Part shown: piece after piece, positions 1 to 5,537 of the stretch
Layout of the letters: the number at the start of each line of letters is the position of its first letter
How positions within the stretch are numbered: position 1 is the first letter of the stretch
Virus record (IMG/VR): IMGVR_UViG_2602041586_000008
Span: 1-5,537 of that record
DNA: 5,537 nt
Source of the DNA: a virus
Lineage: Duplodnaviria; Heunggongvirae; Uroviricota; Caudoviricetes
Reading direction: 5' to 3' (one strand)
The notes under the pieces: generated by a model
Databases searched by the model: none
Told to the model about the DNA's origin: nothing
What the model saw: the letters and a program-made list of their open reading frames with translations, nothing else
Program-made: the position numbers and the translations under genes

Positions 1-70
1 TGTGCCAACAGCGGACATTATAGATGGTATATGTAGAAAGTGAACATGCGTAGATTGTATGATTTAGCCG

Positions 71-880
71 TCACTTAATTATTGGATAACTCACACAAGT
101 ATGACCGTTGCTTATCGCATACATTTGGTTTCCCTTAAGATTTACAAATGGAAATGTCGTATACTCATAATTTATAGAGGTCATATTAAATGTAAGGAAT
201 TTATCTTCAAGTTCTAATTTTGTAGAGTGGGCAGGGTATGTTCCTTCATTTTTCATTGTGATAATAAAACCGATAGGAAAAAAATGTAAAGCACAAATAA
301 ATGCCACATGTCCTTCGTTCATAAATGCTACACTTTGAGCGGATATGTGCATTCTGTGTGGGTAAAACCAGTAGTAAATATCATGAGTTTCCTCAAAACT
401 TGAATTTTTACCCAAAACATAATCCTTTAAAGGTGTATAGAAGGGGCTATCTACGGGTTCTTTTTTACAATCTTCAACTGAAGTTGCTGATAGCACGTGC
501 CCAATCATAGCCTTAGTGAAAGATATGCTATCAAAAGGTATTCTAATGAATGGATATACATTCATACCATTCATATATCGACTTAACTGTTCTTTAAAGG
601 ACTTTGTTACATTTTCAATTGCAACATCGAGCCCACCTAATACCTTATTGTTACAGTGGCTGCAAATGGTTCTGAAATAAGAGCCATTTTTAGCATTTAA
701 TGGTTTAACTGGTTCCTGAATACCAAAAAATTCGCTAACTGTTTTCTGCAAAACAGGGCCTAAGGTTATGGCGCACTTTGGAGGAACATGATCTTTTGTG
801 AGCAAGCCATATTTCCCACAAATATTGCAATAACCTTCAGTAATGCCATTGTGCTTCCATCGTTCACTAATTTTCGTCAT
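71..880 (-). CDS. HNH/HNN-type nuclease-domain protein, 269 aa; N-terminal zinc-finger nuclease motif, C-terminal ~180 aa uncharacterised
   Basis: Complete ORF with ATG at 880..878 and a GAGGGA Shine-Dalgarno 6 nt upstream on the minus strand. The N-terminus carries CNICG...DHVPP...N...CSHCNNK, i.e. CxxC / DH / N / CxHCN, which fits the HNH (HNN-variant) beta-beta-alpha-metal fold. The C-terminal aromatic-rich region is not recognised. GC is visibly lower than in the phage core genes. Confidence 0.7.
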   Translation of the reverse strand: MTKISERWKHNGITEGYCNICGKYGLLTKDHVPPKCAITLGPVLQKTVSEFFGIQEPVKPLNAKNGSYFRTICSHCNNKVLGGLDVAIENVTKSFKEQLSRYMNGMNVYPFIRIPFDSISFTKAMIGHVLSATSVEDCKKEPVDSPFYTPLKDYVLGKNSSFEETHDIYYWFYPHRMHISAQSVAFMNEGHVAFICALHFFPIGFIITMKNEGTYPAHSTKLELEDKFLTFNMTSINYEYTTFPFVNLKGNQMYAISNGHTCVSYPIIK

Positions 881-1440
881 TTTTATTCCCTCAGTAGCAT
901 AAGCTATCTATACGTTTTTTAATCCTATCAAAGATACAACTTAACGTCAGGAAAATGATAGTGTTTATCTAAGTAATACAATTAACTTCAACGCGTGACA
1001 GTCTGCTTTTCGCTCAAAGCGGACTAGAAGGTTAGCTTGCGTCGGACTTGGCGTATTTAAAGAAGTGCTGGTGGTGACTGGTTGTTGTGTTCCATTTCTA
1101 CAGAATAAAATCACAGAAACTATACCCAATAGTTGTATTGAATCACTGACGAGACAGCTTCATATTTATCAGGACTGGTGTGCGTCTAATACAGGGGGTT
1201 GTCGTGCTGGTTCTCAAATGTGCGCTGGCTATTGCGGCTGTAATGGCAATTTATTGTCTTGCTGTTGTTCTTATGGAGCGGCTTTCTGATTGATTACATA
1301 CTGGCTAGAAAAAAGGTGTTACCTTGGTTTATCTTTGTCCGGCAAGGTGCGCTCATTAATCTTAAGTAAATTTATTGCTCAAGTATTCAGATTACTTCTT
1401 ATGGTTGAAGTCTCCTGTCAATGTAGAACCAATATATTTA

Positions 1441-1478
1441 CAAAAATGAGACCCGTCGGGGATAGCCCTGCCGGGTCT
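1441..1478 (-). terminator. Candidate intrinsic terminator for the YeaR-like gene
   Basis: 7-bp stem AGACCCG (1449-1455) / CGGGTCT (1472-1478) with a 16-nt loop. On the minus strand it is followed directly by ATTTTTG (plus 1441-1447), about 30 nt past the stop at 1508. The loop is large, so stability is uncertain. Confidence 0.45.
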
Positions 1479-1507
1479 GACTGTTAAAGCATTTTTAATA
1501 TGATCAT

Positions 1508-1846
1508 CTATTTTTTGGTGCTATAGACTTTTTCGCCCGAGAAGTCTGGAGCGACCCAAAAGTTAATATTAAACTGAGCATCATCGCTTAGTTCAACACG
1601 GTGCCAGTATTGTGGTGGGCTTGTTGCAAAAGCGCCAGCATTAATGACTACTTTTATCTCCGGTTCAGTAGCATTCTCATCAGTAAAACCATAATATGTT
1701 ACAGTGCCTTCCATTACGCACAACTGCCCAAAAACACCTGCTGCTGTATTATGATGTGTTAATAACGCTGAAGGTACGTTCTCTTTTGTGAAGAACGGAG
1801 TTGAGCGTTTGATTACCCAATCTTTAGGAATTCTCTTGTGTGTCAT
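1508..1846 (-). CDS. DUF1971 / YeaR-like small protein, 112 aa (TehB-C-terminal-like fold family)
   Basis: The ORF track gives 1508..1870, but the internal Met (MTHKRIPKD...) at 1846 is preceded by a perfect GAGGAGG Shine-Dalgarno (plus 1853-1859), so the start is placed at 1846. Motifs RSTPFF, VMEGTV.YYGF.DE..EP, AG.FA..PP..WH and FNINFWVAP match my recollection of E. coli YeaR (DUF1971). Confidence 0.8.
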   Translation of the reverse strand: MTHKRIPKDWVIKRSTPFFTKENVPSALLTHHNTAAGVFGQLCVMEGTVTYYGFTDENATEPEIKVVINAGAFATSPPQYWHRVELSDDAQFNINFWVAPDFSGEKVYSTKK

Positions 1847-1861
1847 AACCACCTCCTCAAA

Positions 1862-1884
1862 AACATGCATTATAAATGCGTGTT
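1862..1884. promoter_or_regulatory. NsrR-box-like 11-1-11 inverted repeat (candidate operator) over the -10 of the YeaR-like gene
   Basis: Plus strand reads AACATGCATTA-T-AAATGCGTGTT. Both halves approximate the NsrR half-site AAnATGCATTT as I remember it, 10/11 and 9/11. It lies 3-5 nt upstream of the Shine-Dalgarno and contains the -10 hexamer. Confidence 0.4.
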
Positions 1885-1901
1885 TTTGAGGGTTATGTCA
1901 A
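1869..1901 (-). promoter_or_regulatory. Sigma70-like promoter elements for the YeaR-like gene with an atypical 21-bp spacer
   Basis: On the minus strand there is a perfect TTGACA (plus 1896-1901) and a perfect TATAAT (plus 1869-1874), separated by 21 bp. That is longer than the usual 16-18 bp. The -10 is well placed relative to the SD and ATG (predicted start site near 1862). Confidence 0.35.
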
Positions 1902-2163
1902 GCTGTTATGAAACACATAATTGATATGTTGATTAGAGGAGAAGATATAATAAATATGGTTGTTTTTCGTATAACTATTTGTTTTACTTTTAGTTTATGC
2001 ATTCTGTGTGTTAGGAATAAGTTATTAAAGTTTAATCAAAAAATCTCGATGTAGTCCACATAGATTATTGTTACTGAACCTTATTGTGTGTATTAGTTGT
2101 GTTCTGAAATTTCAGCTTAATTATTTATGATGTATTTTTTAACGATAAATATTTTCCCAGGAT

Positions 2164-2214
2164 GCCTTTACTGTGTATATAAATAAATTATATACACATA
2201 AATAATGTAAAGGC
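2164..2214. repeat. Nested inverted repeat in an AT-rich intergenic region
   Basis: Inner perfect IR TGTGTATATAA (2172-2182) / TTATATACACA (2188-2198) with a 5-bp spacer. It is flanked by outer arms GCCTTTA (2164-2170) / TAAAGGC (2208-2214). Confidence 0.5.
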
Positions 2215-2573
2215 GTCCTTTTAGATATATCTTATCAAATGTTAATGACTTGAGTGGGAAATATGATTCCAGCAACTTATCATGTGGCTACTTTATAAAA
2301 ATAATGCCCATATAAAACAACAAGCGAAAAGGATTACGGATAAAAAAGGAGCGAGATGTGCGAACTTGTTATTTTCCATGTTTAACCACCTTAAATAATT
2401 GATGATGACGGGATGATTGCATCTGTAATGCTTTTATTGAAATGTTATGATAAAAAAGAACTTTTGCATAACATTAAAATGTAATTTATCTAATCGTTTT
2501 TAATAATAAATGTCGTATTTCTATCCTTGTACCAGCTATTTGATATGTAGTGTTTGTTCATGCTATGTGGGGC

Positions 2574-2601
2574 TTTACACCATAGCCAGTTTATTTATAC
2601 T
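2574..2601 (+). promoter_or_regulatory. Candidate sigma70 promoter for the nin-like operon
   Basis: TTTACA (2574-2579), 16-bp spacer, TATACT (2596-2601), about 60 nt upstream of the ATG at 2660. It overlaps an imperfect hairpin (GCTATG(T)GG ... CCATAGC, 2562-2586) followed by T-rich sequence, which could instead be a tR2-like terminator. Confidence 0.3.
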
Positions 2602-2659
2602 TTATTCGTCAGCCTGAACAACTGGCATCTGCTGCGCTGCGCCATCGAGAGATTGAGAA

Positions 2660-3259
2660 ATGGCGCATATACAACTGGTCAAACAAACCTCTTCTGGTTT
2701 ACTTCTCCCGGCGACGCCGGAGAGTTGCGATTTTTTGCATCAAATCAAAATAGGTGAGTGGATACACGCAGACTTTAAGCGTGTGCGTAACTACGCATTC
2801 CACAAGCGTTTTTTCAAACTCCTGCAACTGGGATTCGATTACTGGACTCCGGTCGGTGGGGCGATCACGCCTCGCGAACGAAAACTGGTATCGGGCTTCG
2901 TTGATTACCTGTGCGAATCAGTAGGTCGGGAACACACTCCAGCCCTGAGTGATGCCGCAGAGCAATACCTTAATACCGTTGCGACATGCAGAACCCGGGA
3001 TACGGCATTGCTAAAGTCGTTTGACGCTTTCCGCGAGTGGGTAACCATTCAGGCAGGATTTTACACCGAGTATATTTATCCTGATGGTAGTCGTGGGCGC
3101 AGGGCAAAATCTATCGCATTTGCGAACATGGACGAAACCGAGTTTCAGCAGGTTTATAAATCTGTACTGAATGTGCTGTGGAACTGGATCCTGTTCCGTA
3201 AATTTTCCTCTCCGGAGGAAGTCGAAAATGTGGCCGCACAGTTACTGGAGTTTGCGTAA
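2660..3259 (+). CDS. Lambdoid nin-region protein, 199 aa (DUF1367-like by memory and synteny)
   Basis: Complete ORF at about 50% GC. Its stop overlaps the next gene's start (TAATG at 3257-3261). Position is immediately upstream of a YbcO-like gene and a Q-like gene, as in many enterobacterial prophage nin regions. The family name is a recollection, not a search result. Confidence 0.8.
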   Translation: MAHIQLVKQTSSGLLLPATPESCDFLHQIKIGEWIHADFKRVRNYAFHKRFFKLLQLGFDYWTPVGGAITPRERKLVSGFVDYLCESVGREHTPALSDAAEQYLNTVATCRTRDTALLKSFDAFREWVTIQAGFYTEYIYPDGSRGRRAKSIAFANMDETEFQQVYKSVLNVLWNWILFRKFSSPEEVENVAAQLLEFA

Positions 3260-3549
3260 TGGTGGATTTACGTAAAGCGGCGCGGGGGCAGATGTGCACC
3301 GTCAGAATTCCTGGCTACTGCAATCACAATCCCGAAACATCTGTGCTGGCGCATTACAGGCTGTCGGGGACGTGCGGAACAGCGACAAAACCACACGATA
3401 TGCAGGCAGCGATTGCCTGTAGCTCATGCCACGATTTAATCGACGGGCGGGTAAAAACCAGCGATTACACCAAAGAAGAATTACGCCTGATGCATGCAGA
3501 AGGTGTTTTTCGCACACAAGAAATCTGGAGAAAGGAAGGTTATTTATGA
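3259..3549 (+). CDS. ybcO: YbcO-like (DUF1364) Cys-rich, likely zinc-binding phage protein, 96 aa; putative nuclease
   Basis: 96 aa, the same length as DLP12 YbcO. It has the MxDLRKAARG...C.VRIPG.CNxNPETSVLAH.R..G.CGT.TKP......IAC..CHD pattern with 5 Cys and His that I recall for YbcO. Translationally coupled on both sides (TAATG upstream, ATGA downstream). Confidence 0.75.
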   Translation: MVDLRKAARGQMCTVRIPGYCNHNPETSVLAHYRLSGTCGTATKPHDMQAAIACSSCHDLIDGRVKTSDYTKEELRLMHAEGVFRTQEIWRKEGYL

Positions 3550-4088
3550 TTTACCCAACAAATACAGGCAAAAGCGGGGAACACCTTCGTCTCACCACGC
3601 TGGAAAGTGTCTGGATTCAGGGAAAACTGCGCATGTGGGGGCGCTGGTCGTATATTGGCGGCGGTAAGACGGGAAATATGTTTAACCAGTTGCTGGCATC
3701 CAAAAAATTGACGAAAACAGCCGTCAATGAAGCCCTGCGCAGGATGAAAAAAGCGGGAATAGAGAAACCTGAGCTGGAAGCGTTTTTGCGAGAGATGATC
3801 AATGGCAAGCTAAAGACCTGGCTGGCGCATTGTACTGATGCAGAGGCGTTATGTATTGATAGAGTCATAAGTGAGGTGCTGGCAGAGCATCCTGGATTGA
3901 TTAGTGTCCTCCGGCAACGGTATGAAGGACGGGGGATGACTAAGCGCAAAATGGCTGAATTGCTAAATGATGCACATCCTGAGTGGTGTTTTAGCACATG
4001 CGAAAAGCGAATTGCTAATTGGTTGGCTGTTGCTGAGTATGCCCTATATATTCCCATGCGAGAATCATTTGCTCAAAAAATAGCTTGA
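3546..4088 (+). CDS. Putative late-gene antiterminator, Q-like, 180 aa
   Basis: Start placed at the internal ATG 3546, which has an AAGGAAGG Shine-Dalgarno 5 nt upstream and overlaps the YbcO-like stop as ATGA. The longer ORF from 3426 would overlap the YbcO-like gene by 124 nt with an Arg-rich N-terminus. It is the last nin-side gene before a hairpin/terminator region and the lysis gene. It has four Cys (C-x6-C ... C-x3-C). The function is assigned by synteny; the sequence family is not confirmed. Confidence 0.6.
   Translation: MIYPTNTGKSGEHLRLTTLESVWIQGKLRMWGRWSYIGGGKTGNMFNQLLASKKLTKTAVNEALRRMKKAGIEKPELEAFLREMINGKLKTWLAHCTDAEALCIDRVISEVLAEHPGLISVLRQRYEGRGMTKRKMAELLNDAHPEWCFSTCEKRIANWLAVAEYALYIPMRESFAQKIA
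4023..4052 (+). promoter_or_regulatory. Candidate late promoter (PR'-like) inside the 3' end of the Q-like gene
   Basis: TTGGCT (4023-4028), 16-18 bp spacer, TATATA/TATATT (4045-4052). An alternative is TTGATT (4085-4090), 17 bp, TGcTTCAAT (4105-4113). Neither is compelling. Confidence 0.2.
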
Positions 4089-4117
4089 TTTTTTACGCGT
4101 AAACTGCTTCAATTCCG

Positions 4118-4134
4118 GCTTTGCTTCGCAAAGC
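4118..4134. repeat. Perfect inverted repeat GCTTTGC-TTC-GCAAAGC
   Basis: 7-bp arms with a 3-nt loop, 30 bp after the Q-like stop. No T-run follows, so it is not a terminator by itself. It could be a protein-binding site or an RNA hairpin in the late leader. Confidence 0.5.
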
Positions 4135-4172
4135 TGTATCGCGAGGCGAACCAAGCGCATGAACTTTACCAG

Positions 4173-4200
4173 AACCCGCCATTGAGCGGGTTTTGTTGTT
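4173..4200 (+). terminator. tR'-like intrinsic terminator downstream of the Q-like gene
   Basis: Stem AACCCGC (4173-4179) / GCGGGTT (4186-4192), 6-nt loop, followed by TTTGTTGTTT. Confidence 0.55.
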
Positions 4201-4276
4201 TCTGGTACTGGCGAACCTGATGTTTCATTTCTGGAACGAGATTCCTGGCGGAATACCTAGAATCGAGACATTCTGG
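4200..4276 (+). repeat. Direct repeats of TTCTGG (x3) plus one TTCCTGG in the leader of the membrane-protein gene
   Basis: TTCTGG at 4200-4205, 4229-4234 and 4271-4276, and TTCCTGG at 4242-4248, all between the tR'-like terminator and the ATG at 4311. Confidence 0.35.
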
Positions 4277-4310
4277 TAAAATTGTTTTCAGTACAGGATG
4301 TGGAGGTGAG

Positions 4311-4880
4311 ATGAGAGAACTACCTAAAGATTATTTTTTAGGAGTAGATGATGAGCTCGTCGATTATCTTGAAAAACAAGGGGAAGAGACGATACGAGAG
4401 ATTCATCTTTCTAACAAAACCAATGTTGAGAATGGATACAAACTTCTGAACATTCAGATTGTTGGAATTGGTTCATCTTTTTTATTGCTGACACAGAAAA
4501 CTAATTTCGATTTTCTCACCGCCGGAATTACCACATTTACATTACTATGGACATGGTGCGCCATTTACTTGATATGTACTGGTTTATCTGTGAAGGTTAG
4601 GGGCCTGATCAATGCCCCTCCTGATCATCTATATCATGAAAAATATAAGGATATGGAGCCCTCGAGCTTTAAAATATTCGCTGATGCAGGATATTTAGGA
4701 CCTGATAAGTTATTGCCGCTTATACGAAGGTATCGCCTTGTTGACTTGAGTGATACAGCAAGAGAGTTACTGTTGGAAAATGAGAAAATCCGCACGAGTC
4801 TCGATAAAGCAAGGATGTATACCATCCTTGCTCCGGTAGCGGCGATGTTTATCTCGGCTGTTTTTTTATATGTTCAATGA
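4311..4880 (+). CDS. Low-GC predicted membrane protein, 189 aa, about 3 TM helices; accessory gene between Q and holin
   Basis: Complete ORF with GGAGG just upstream, though the spacer is short. Hydrophobic segments sit near aa 45-62 and 68-92 and at the C-terminus (MYTILAPVAAMFISAVFLYVQ), with soluble N-terminal and central regions. It is visibly more AT-rich than the flanking Q-like and holin genes. No family recognised. Confidence 0.7.
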   Translation: MRELPKDYFLGVDDELVDYLEKQGEETIREIHLSNKTNVENGYKLLNIQIVGIGSSFLLLTQKTNFDFLTAGITTFTLLWTWCAIYLICTGLSVKVRGLINAPPDHLYHEKYKDMEPSSFKIFADAGYLGPDKLLPLIRRYRLVDLSDTARELLLENEKIRTSLDKARMYTILAPVAAMFISAVFLYVQ

Positions 4881-5010
4881 CTGAGTCGGCAGAATCTCCA
4901 ACAAAAACACGACGTGTAGCAAAGTCTGTAGTACTTTGTGTTGGAGTTGGTTTTGGTGCCACGGGTTGCTGAGGTTTATTTTCATCTTGTGGCTTGTTTT
5001 TTTCAGACAT
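4849..5010 (-). CDS. Small hydrophilic Pro/Lys/Gln-rich protein, 53 aa (hypothetical)
   Basis: Internal ATG at 5010 of the 130-aa minus ORF, with a strong AAGAGGA Shine-Dalgarno 5 nt upstream. Sequence MSEKNKPQDENKPQQPVAPKPTPTQSTTDFATRRVFVGDSADSVIEHIKKQPR. Its 3' end overlaps the membrane-protein gene by 32 bp in convergent orientation. It could equally be non-coding antisense sequence. Confidence 0.4.
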   Translation of the reverse strand: MSEKNKPQDENKPQQPVAPKPTPTQSTTDFATRRVFVGDSADSVIEHIKKQPR

Positions 5011-5103
5011 AAAAATCCTCTTTGTTTGAATTGTTACTTTTGGCGATTTAACGATATCAAACACGAGTATATACCGCCAGAAGCTTAATCTGGCACTCCA
5101 TCT

Positions 5104-5130
5104 GACCCCGGCATGTCCCGGGGCTTTTTC
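5104..5130 (+). terminator. Intrinsic terminator upstream of the holin gene
   Basis: GC-only stem CCCCGG (5106-5111) / CCGGGG (5118-5123) with loop CATGTC, followed by CTTTTTC. Plus-strand only; there is no T-run on the other side. Confidence 0.6.
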
Positions 5131-5227
5131 GTTGTTAGGCTCCGGAAACATCCTCGACTTCTTGTTAGCAAGCCTGAGAGCCTGAATCTTACACTTAGCA
5201 CCATCCGAACTCTCGGAGGTGAGGCTT

Positions 5228-5537
5228 ATGAAAATGCACAATGCCCCTCATTCCTGGCCTGACTTACTGGAACTCTTACAAAGTTGGTGGCGTGGAGATA
5301 CGCCGCTGGGTGCAGTGGTTATGTCAATTATTATGGCTGGTTTGCGCATTGCCTATTTTGGCGGTGGCGGCGGCTGGAAACGAAAAACGCTTGAGATTCT
5401 GCTTTGTGGTGCTCTGACGCTGACCTTTGCATCCGCGCTTGAGTATGTCGGATGGCCTAAATCACTTTCTGTTGCCATTGGTGGTGGGGTGGGGCTGAAG
5501 TGGTTTACTGAATTTGGCCACCTGAACAGAGGTGATA
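5228..5537 (+). CDS. Lambda-S-like class I holin with MKM dual start (antiholin/holin), 3' truncated by the window edge
   Basis: GGAGGT Shine-Dalgarno at 5215-5220 and ATG at 5228. Translation MKMHNAPHSWPDLLELL...GGGGGWKRKTLEILLCGALTLTFASALEYVGW... has the Met-Lys-Met dual-start signature and hydrophobic layout of lambda S. The reading frame runs open to the window end (103 codons). Confidence 0.8.
   Translation, partial: MKMHNAPHSWPDLLELLQSWWRGDTPLGAVVMSIIMAGLRIAYFGGGGGWKRKTLEILLCGALTLTFASALEYVGWPKSLSVAIGGGVGLKWFTEFGHLNRGD

Follow-up and report, generated by a model that had tools for sequence, protein, structure and literature searches.

Does a small open reading frame (ORF) that runs head-on into a membrane-protein gene of an Escherichia coli prophage encode a protein, and does it control the gene it faces? 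The question is raised by a 5,537-nucleotide (nt) stretch of virus DNA (IMG/VR record IMGVR_UViG_2602041586_000008, positions 1 to 5,537), here called the window, which corresponds to the late-regulatory region in a lambdoid, Rac-like E. coli prophage. On the plus strand, positions 4311-4880 encode a 189-amino-acid (aa) membrane protein with three hydrophobic helices (phrog_11870, E 1.4e-107), and on the minus strand a 53-aa ORF (4849..5010; ATG 5010-5008, stop 4851-4849; phrog_14506) converges on it. An earlier reading of these letters, the original prediction, proposed a regulatory pair in which either a small protein or an antisense RNA would control the membrane protein. Comparison across homologues indicates that the small ORF is a protein-coding gene under purifying selection, and we are nearly certain that the gene is real and that its function is coupled to that of the membrane gene. 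The mechanistic model that we favor as a whole, in which a small partner protein and convergent transcription would keep a pore-type effector under control, is given a probability of about 0.45.

The elements claimed for the ORF are all present on the minus strand. The Shine-Dalgarno (SD) sequence AAGAGGA (5022..5016) and a 5-nt spacer, TTTTT, precede the ATG, direct translation yields a Pro/Lys/Gln-rich product of 53 aa (MSEKNKPQDENKPQQPVAPKPTPTQSTTDFATRRVFVGDSADSVIEHIKKQPR), and 32 nt of its coding sequence (4849-4880) are shared with the 3' end of the membrane gene, as had been stated. The window is rich in ORFs (57 of at least 30 aa) and the minus-strand frame of the small ORF is free of stops over 130 codons and reaches back to a TTG at 5241, so ORF length alone is no proof of a gene. 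PGAP has already annotated the ORF as a 'hypothetical protein' (WP_240763414.1), its length given as 53 or 71 aa, and a 100-aa version exists in some protein-collection records.

We gathered approximately 100 loci with membrane-protein homologues from genomes, viral contigs, and assemblies. The enterobacterial homologues, with membrane proteins 49-99% identical, make up about 50 distinct loci; the frame and SD counts given below refer to 49 distinct loci chosen for having the small ORF. At intact loci a convergent ORF of 47-64 aa overlaps the 3' end of the membrane gene. The exceptions come from homopolymer frameshifts in L038 and in the L003/H36 group, from N bases at one locus (L027), from two truncated membrane genes, and from one insertion of an insertion sequence; among distinct regions in which the membrane gene is intact, the small ORF was missing in L038, L003, and L027 alone. 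The 49 loci encode 41 distinct small-protein variants. An SD-like motif was located 4-13 nt upstream of the small-gene ATG in 49/49 loci, while the remaining two minus-strand frames are open in only 5/49 and 0/49. With the overlap excluded, the ratio of non-synonymous to synonymous substitution (dN/dS) relative to the window copy was 0.07-0.39, and the proportion of non-synonymous differences (pN) was below that of synonymous differences (pS) in 300/300 pairwise comparisons. Synonymous sites outside the overlap are saturated (median pS 0.75 vs median pN 0.38). The comparison of synonymous and non-synonymous change across homologues, which the original prediction had named as a check, thus shows a frame kept under purifying selection. 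Because start, SD, and frame are kept and dN/dS is low, the small ORF is judged to be a gene, and the same sequence data indicate that its true start is the conserved 53-aa ATG and not that of the 71- or 100-aa extensions. The overlap measures 20, 23, 26, 32, or 35 nt in enterobacterial homologues and 50 nt in Gilliamella; its length is always 2 mod 3, so that the two frames have a constant phase to each other. The small protein matches the phrog_14506 profile at E 2.4e-31, and a search with a profile of the small proteins returned 66 clusters, all of them unnamed stand-alone proteins of 29-100 aa.

These data bear on two readings that do without a functional peptide. A chance ORF lying antisense to a 3' untranslated region (UTR), with no gene there, would agree with the many spurious ORFs of the window and with a frame open for 130 codons by chance; it is refuted by the conservation and selection seen across homologues, and we give it practically no weight. 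The other reading takes the minus-strand transcript as purely an antisense RNA, similar to those of type I toxin-antitoxin systems, with the peptide incidental. Convergent overlap, and the predicted full complementarity of the small-gene transcript with the 3' UTR of the membrane mRNA, would be expected from such an RNA, but purifying selection at the amino-acid level is strong with synonymous sites saturated, the SD is kept in 49/49 loci, the protein motif described below is kept in relatives whose DNA is unalignable, and the membrane protein, at 189 aa, is not a small type I toxin peptide. This reading is very improbable, and the selection data essentially exclude both. Between the two options of the original prediction, small protein or antisense RNA, it is the protein that stands; an extra role at the RNA level may still exist beside it.

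The DNA shared with copies in other phage backgrounds extends over exactly 4252-5143, and this comparison indicates that the two genes and their associated elements are a mobile cargo cassette ('moron') of temperate phages with limits at about 4252-5143. Enterobacterial backgrounds comprise three unrelated families of the antiterminator Q (DUF1133, PF06323, PF03589) and differing holin families, and in L005 the cassette occupies the slot in which Shiga toxin (Stx) phages carry stx. Six remote relatives of the membrane protein, at ~20-30% identity, were inspected (P0189, P0203, P0196, P0209 from Oxalobacter, P0220, and P0185). A convergent small ORF is present at 6/6, overlapping the membrane gene by 23-71 nt in five and abutting its stop codon in L108. 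The remote small proteins start with MS(E/N)..K, followed by a Pro/Gln/Lys/Ser-rich stretch and then a motif, F/V-x-D-S-A/I-E/D, which is kept in four of them and degenerate in L102 and L110. Their contexts vary: L101 and L102 follow a CI/S24 repressor gene, L104 is part of an immunity region, L108 precedes terminase, and L110 is in a Mu-like region. A Gilliamella homologue with 32% identity is accompanied by a 26-aa version of the small protein. The persistence of the pairing across unalignable DNA argues for functional coupling at the protein level and not at the RNA level alone, and the small protein appears to be an obligate partner of the adjacent membrane protein. The proposed tie between the two genes is therefore upheld, since they co-occur, converge, and overlap across the family at varied positions of phage genomes. 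The implied tie to lysogen induction is not, given that the cassette has -10 elements of its own and is also found outside late operons.

The window small protein has a Pro/Lys/Gln-rich N-terminal half that is predicted to be disordered; the motif DFATRRVFVGDSAD and a tail of basic character complete it. Across the family, Lys accounts for 12.8%, Pro for 12.3%, and Gln for 10.8% of residues, and the enterobacterial consensus reads MS(E/Q)xNKPxGExKPQ...KPxP...DF(S/A/T)xxRxx VGDSA(D/E)xxRKKxK, in which the shared features are F..R..VGDSA(D/E) and the Lys-rich tail; remote relatives carry a weaker form. The proteins are hydrophilic (median isoelectric point, pI, 9.7) and have no hydrophobic segment. 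An AlphaFold 2 (AF2) model left residues 1-40 without secondary structure and placed a short helix at 41-50, with confidence highest at 31-50. Judging by this model, the product looks like a disordered protein carrying a short binding motif. The GDS-like part of the motif was considered as a mark of SGNH hydrolases and ruled out, as the protein is only ~50 aa and disordered.

Some variation within the small gene was also observed. The number of Pro-Thr repeats (window 4937-4948, PTPT) varies among close relatives as PTPT, PTPTPT, and PTPTPTPT (P0004, P0006, P0009), and P0010 has a 3-aa in-frame deletion; both look like in-frame slippage in the low-complexity half. Homopolymer runs at window positions 4860-4867 and 4996-5003 are frameshift hotspots. 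Relative to the Escherichia sp. cassette L005/L006, the N-terminal half of the small gene together with its upstream DNA (window 4936-5133) is 87% identical, and divergence from the window is seen in the C-terminal motif and the membrane protein (57% aa identity). This break of identity within the small gene points to a recombination breakpoint there, with the motif half staying with the membrane gene.

The membrane protein was modeled with AF2 at a confidence score (pLDDT) of 85, with long helices at residues 14-62, 68-92, and 134-188. The hydrophobic parts of these helices are predicted to form three membrane spans and the remainder a helical cytosolic bundle. Fold searches with the model retrieved generic bundles only, and a sequence-profile search of the PDB gave nothing under E 0.6. 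An exhaustive profile search places approximately 100 clusters at 50% identity in the family, and 48/48 remote relatives tested match phrog_11870. One of these, P0196, which the membrane-family profile retrieves at E 1.4e-21, matches the PADLOC model of the effector PycTM over its full length (E 1.5e-8) and the '2TM' effector model of CBASS, the cyclic-oligonucleotide-based antiphage signaling system, at E 4e-5. A few other relatives gave weaker matches to the PycTM and 2TM models, and a match to PycTM in Pfam stood at 0.016, below threshold. These matches suggest, at the level of remote homology, that the membrane family is a distant relative of the PycTM and CBASS 2TM abortive-infection effectors. 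PycTM is an effector with three transmembrane (TM) helices that disrupts the membrane to abort infection (PMC11224242), and for PucTM, also 3TM, a hexameric channel and a cytosolic part made of helices are described (bioRxiv 10.64898/2026.08.12.744502). The three membrane helices and helical cytosolic part of our model agree with these descriptions. No gene for a cyclase or a CD-NTase (cGAS/DncV-like nucleotidyltransferase) is adjacent in any inspected context (window, enterobacterial loci, and remote cassettes), and no cyclic-nucleotide-binding Pfam domain was detected. The membrane protein is acidic in its N-terminal domain (net charge -5). By sequence, this domain and the basic small protein would be complementary in charge, which we count in favor of the model set out below.

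The signals that may drive the two genes were sought in the non-coding parts of the cassette. Upstream of it is an intrinsic terminator on the plus strand (4170-4205; stem CAGAACCCGC...GCGGGTTTTG plus a T-rich tail), which is context and not part of the pair; a GGG..TTTT terminator-like element stands before the membrane-gene promoter in most homologous loci. The sole conserved non-coding element upstream of the membrane gene is cattcaGGTAAAAT / GGTAAAAT. Its window form, TGGTAAAAT, directly follows the terminator at 4274-4282 and is a putative plus-strand promoter of the extended -10 type (TGgTAAAAT, hexamer TAAAAT at 4277-4282); TA[AT]AAT occurs 15-60 nt upstream of the membrane-gene ATG in 39/49 distinct loci. 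The most conserved non-coding block of the cassette is on the minus strand at 5059..5033 (TGATATCGTTAAATCGCCAAAAGTAAC) and is near-invariant among loci whose proteins share only ~50% identity. Its invariant positions fit an extended -10, TGnTATnGT, and TGnTA[TC]nnT was found in 41/49 loci. We infer from this conservation an extended -10 promoter (TGATATCGT, 5059..5051) with a start near 5044 and a 5' leader. A consensus promoter scan found no sigma-70 site for either cassette gene, so that both putative promoters are proposed from conservation only.

Conservation at 5033-5050 (minus strand ...ATCGCCAAAAGTAAC...) reaches well past the needs of a -10. A GTAACCAC-like motif recurs 20-25 nt upstream of the start codon in the remote cassettes L104 and L113, duplicated in the latter, and L102 keeps TATTGTTAAATCGGCAAAA. 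The block beyond the -10 may be a leader RNA element, with the (ARN)3 stretch AAAAGUAAC, or an operator. A late promoter/qut or Q-specific element was ruled out for 5033-5059, considering the three unrelated Q families and the presence of the block before a different minus-strand gene elsewhere.

Further along the plus strand, the 3' UTR of the membrane mRNA contains a stem-loop at 5076-5094 (GCCAGA-agcttaa-TCTGGC). A hairpin is found at this position in most variants with differing stems (UGCCGC..GCGGCA, GCCGCC..GGCGGC); it was seen by per-sequence folding and missed by RNAalifold, the subgroups being out of register in the alignment. It is followed by an intrinsic plus-strand terminator at 5106-5129 (CCCCGG-catgtc-CCGGGG, C, TTTTT), which ends the membrane-gene transcript past the small gene. 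In 17 sequences, 8 stem pairs of this terminator stay paired through two-sided changes, and without exception the T-run belongs to the plus strand. With this terminator located beyond the small-gene promoter, the membrane mRNA is expected to be antisense to the small gene along its whole length, with the two promoters facing each other. The antisense overlap of transcripts that the original prediction expected at the 3' ends is consequently predicted here as well, and is very likely larger than was claimed.

The same unit is found elsewhere in a different setting. In E. coli A41 (NZ_CP028735.1, L115 1298-1925), a block/hairpin/terminator unit 95% identical to window 5020-5143 is in the same slot and precedes an unrelated 92-aa minus-strand gene (MASFTVRVELVG...). 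This gene converges with a 76-aa plus-strand gene and overlaps it by 15 nt; both are located between an antiterminator and the same holin, and no Pfam family was found for either protein. The A41 pair has the appearance of another convergent cargo cassette of two genes, unrelated to the first, on the same regulatory unit. Such reuse supports the view that the block is portable and combines a promoter and leader for the minus strand with a plus-strand terminator. Three other loci (L053, L055, L057) have a tRNA-like sequence (GCTCAGTTGGTTAGAGC...) after the cassette on the plus strand, a placement resembling that of tRNA genes downstream of Q in Stx phages.

The position of the cassette bears on a further reading, that the membrane protein is a lysis-timing accessory of the late operon, made late along with the holin and damped by the small gene in the lysogen. 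In the window and ~50 enterobacterial loci, the membrane gene indeed has the orientation of the late operon and is placed after Q, with the holin gene shortly behind it. However, the neighboring holin and Q families vary, terminators bracket a cassette that has its own -10 element, and the remote cassettes are beside repressors, before terminase, or Mu-like with no holin nearby. We consider a role in lysis timing improbable. The cassette likewise differs from holin/antiholin cassettes, as it shows no constant association with lysis genes, being remote from holins in the distant relatives and accompanied by varying holin families elsewhere.

The model that we favor links the remote effector homology to the obligate partner. 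The small protein would be cytoplasmic and, with no cyclase present, take the place of the nucleotide signal. Using F..R..VGDSA, it would most probably bind the effector at its acidic, helical cytoplasmic part and hold it inactive, in the manner of an antitoxin. Convergent transcription and the resulting RNA duplex would make the expression of the two genes reciprocal, and the effector could be released by loss of the small protein or by strong read-in from the late promoter. The outcome would be abortive infection or toxin-antitoxin-like. The parts of this model that we infer are the promoters of the two genes, the binding of one protein to the other, which of them controls which, the toxicity, and the biological role.

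Several observations weigh against this model. The window membrane protein has no direct match in Pfam, NCBIfam, PADLOC, or the PycTM model, and the link to PycTM/2TM comes from a few remote relatives in a class of proteins, those of membranes, that can match with bias. The promoters are non-consensus and weak matches, and for the small gene no terminator was seen on the minus strand. In the viral contig L038, a T7-to-T6 homopolymer change in codons 3-5 truncates the small ORF with the membrane gene intact. In an apparently clonal group that makes up ~12% of sampled E. coli carriers, loss of 1 nt from the T-run of the overlap changes both C-termini, giving a small protein of 80 aa and a membrane protein of 190 aa. 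An antitoxin role is weakened by such apparent loss or alteration of the small protein beside an intact membrane gene; activation, sensing, or a function unrelated to the membrane protein would be equally conceivable for the small protein. The small protein of the window, for its part, has no match in Pfam, NCBIfam, or PADLOC.

The lack of a direct match between the window membrane protein and any defense model would also suit a superinfection-exclusion or lysogenic-conversion protein, for example a blocker of DNA entry and not a killer, with the small protein as its modulator or chaperone. Such a function agrees with the classic temperate cargo slots in which the cassette is located, the Q-lysis gap (the stx slot in L005) or beside the CI repressor, and with its own promoter-like elements and terminators. 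On the other hand, remote relatives match the PycTM/2TM effector models full-length, and exclusion proteins are not known to have an obligate convergent small partner, which we count against this reading. We regard an exclusion protein as unlikely, and retain the effector held by its small partner as the preferred model.

Comparison with known systems places the pair beside several of them without a full equivalent. PycTM, PucTM, and the CBASS 2TM effectors are, similar to the predicted product of the cassette, inner-membrane proteins of ~160-190 aa with three helices and a helical cytosolic part. Unlike Pycsar (PycC + PycTM), in which cCMP/cUMP activates the effector, the cassette has no adjacent pyrimidine cyclase and its partner is a convergent ~50-aa protein; unlike CBASS with a 2TM effector, no CD-NTase is adjacent at any inspected locus. 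Type I toxin-antitoxin pairs from prophage regions of Bacillus subtilis, bsrG/SR4 and txpA/RatA, overlap convergently at their 3' ends and have a membrane-targeted product. The cassette shares with them the convergent 3' overlap, the membrane product on one strand, and the prophage location, but its 'toxin' has 189 aa vs <60 aa and the opposite-strand gene is coding and selected, not a non-coding RNA. Strict linkage is shared with type II-like toxin-antitoxin systems, whose protein antitoxin binds and neutralizes the toxic protein, and in which a co-directional operon is usual where the cassette is convergent. Lambda-type morons and cargo beside cI, such as rexAB, are autonomous, with their own promoter and terminator, and include a membrane protein. 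The cassette resembles this cargo in its autonomy, its location at the Q-lysis junction or beside the repressor, and its membrane protein, and differs in being convergent instead of co-directional and in having no sequence relation to it.

In gene arrangement, the cassette is a candidate non-contiguous operon or excludon, with an opposite-strand gene inside an operon and overlapping antisense transcripts, as predicted from gene order and the position of the plus-strand terminator. In the TaiEcA/AtiEcA non-contiguous operon of phi80, expression of the opposite-strand gene is reported to be lowered by Q-driven late transcription (PMC11364771). A 26-kDa defense protein is encoded on the opposite strand and a small counter-defense gene is in the late operon, Tai acting on tail assembly (PMC11364771). 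In both phi80 and the cassette, an opposite-strand gene interrupts a Q-dependent lambdoid late operon beside a coupled partner, one of the two being very small. Sizes and roles are inverted between them, however, the genome position differs, and the target in phi80 is the tail and not the membrane; this comparison was made by description. We found no paper on the accessions, PHROG ids, or peptide strings of the pair, nor any Ribo-seq or proteomic data on them, and the PycTM papers found treat cyclase-linked systems only. Both families are known only as 'hypothetical' or of 'unknown function', and what would be new is a PycTM-like effector with a new kind of partner, together with the gene architecture.

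A broader claim would be that the cassettes, widespread among temperate phages of Enterobacterales and extending to Oxalobacter and Gilliamella, are a hitherto unrecognized class of two-gene prophage immunity or addiction module, in which a PycTM-like channel is gated by a convergent disordered ~50-aa protein with antisense transcription as a second layer; we put this forward as a doubtful though possible generalization. If the favored model holds, it would represent compact, signal-free control of pore-type abortive-infection effectors, a small protein replacing the second messenger. It would also provide a function for two 'hypothetical' families that about 4% of complete E. coli genomes and numerous other enterobacterial prophages carry, and a clean natural case of a small-protein gene fixed in convergent overlap with its partner. 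The expression logic would be relevant to the regulation of lambdoid cargo in lysogeny vs induction, because the cassette is in the late-promoter-proximal slot that is used by Shiga toxin genes. A minimal result, useful for annotation, is that the small gene is real and starts at the 53-aa ATG.

The window surrounding the cassette has the gene order of a lambdoid late-regulatory region. A DUF1367 gene (2660-3259) is followed directly by a YbcO nuclease gene (3259-3549) and by the DUF1133-type Q antiterminator (3546-4088), and past the second plus-strand terminator a lambda-family holin gene begins at 5229. Near-identical DNA was found in ~225/5,426 complete E. coli genomes (about 4%) and in four sequenced E. 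coli phages. Within the 3' end of the Q gene is a promoter-like sequence, TTGGCT-18-TATATT (4023-4052), with the intrinsic terminator ~120 nt further on. The terminator at 4170-4205 is possibly the tR' of a Q-dependent late promoter, and the two elements are a candidate pR'/tR' pair of the DUF1133-type Q. An Rfam scan of the whole window (E <= 1) gave nothing in 4849-5143 and, elsewhere, two sub-threshold microRNA-like chance matches. Upstream of DUF1367, two minus-strand genes encode a 269-aa protein with Cys-rich zinc-ribbon-like motifs (71-880, phrog_21495) and a DUF1971 protein (1508-1870), neither of which had a match in a PADLOC search. In a closely related prophage of strain AR_0369, the slot upstream of DUF1367 contains the anti-phage genes iteA/iteS, and this slot looks like a hotspot for cargo or defense genes.

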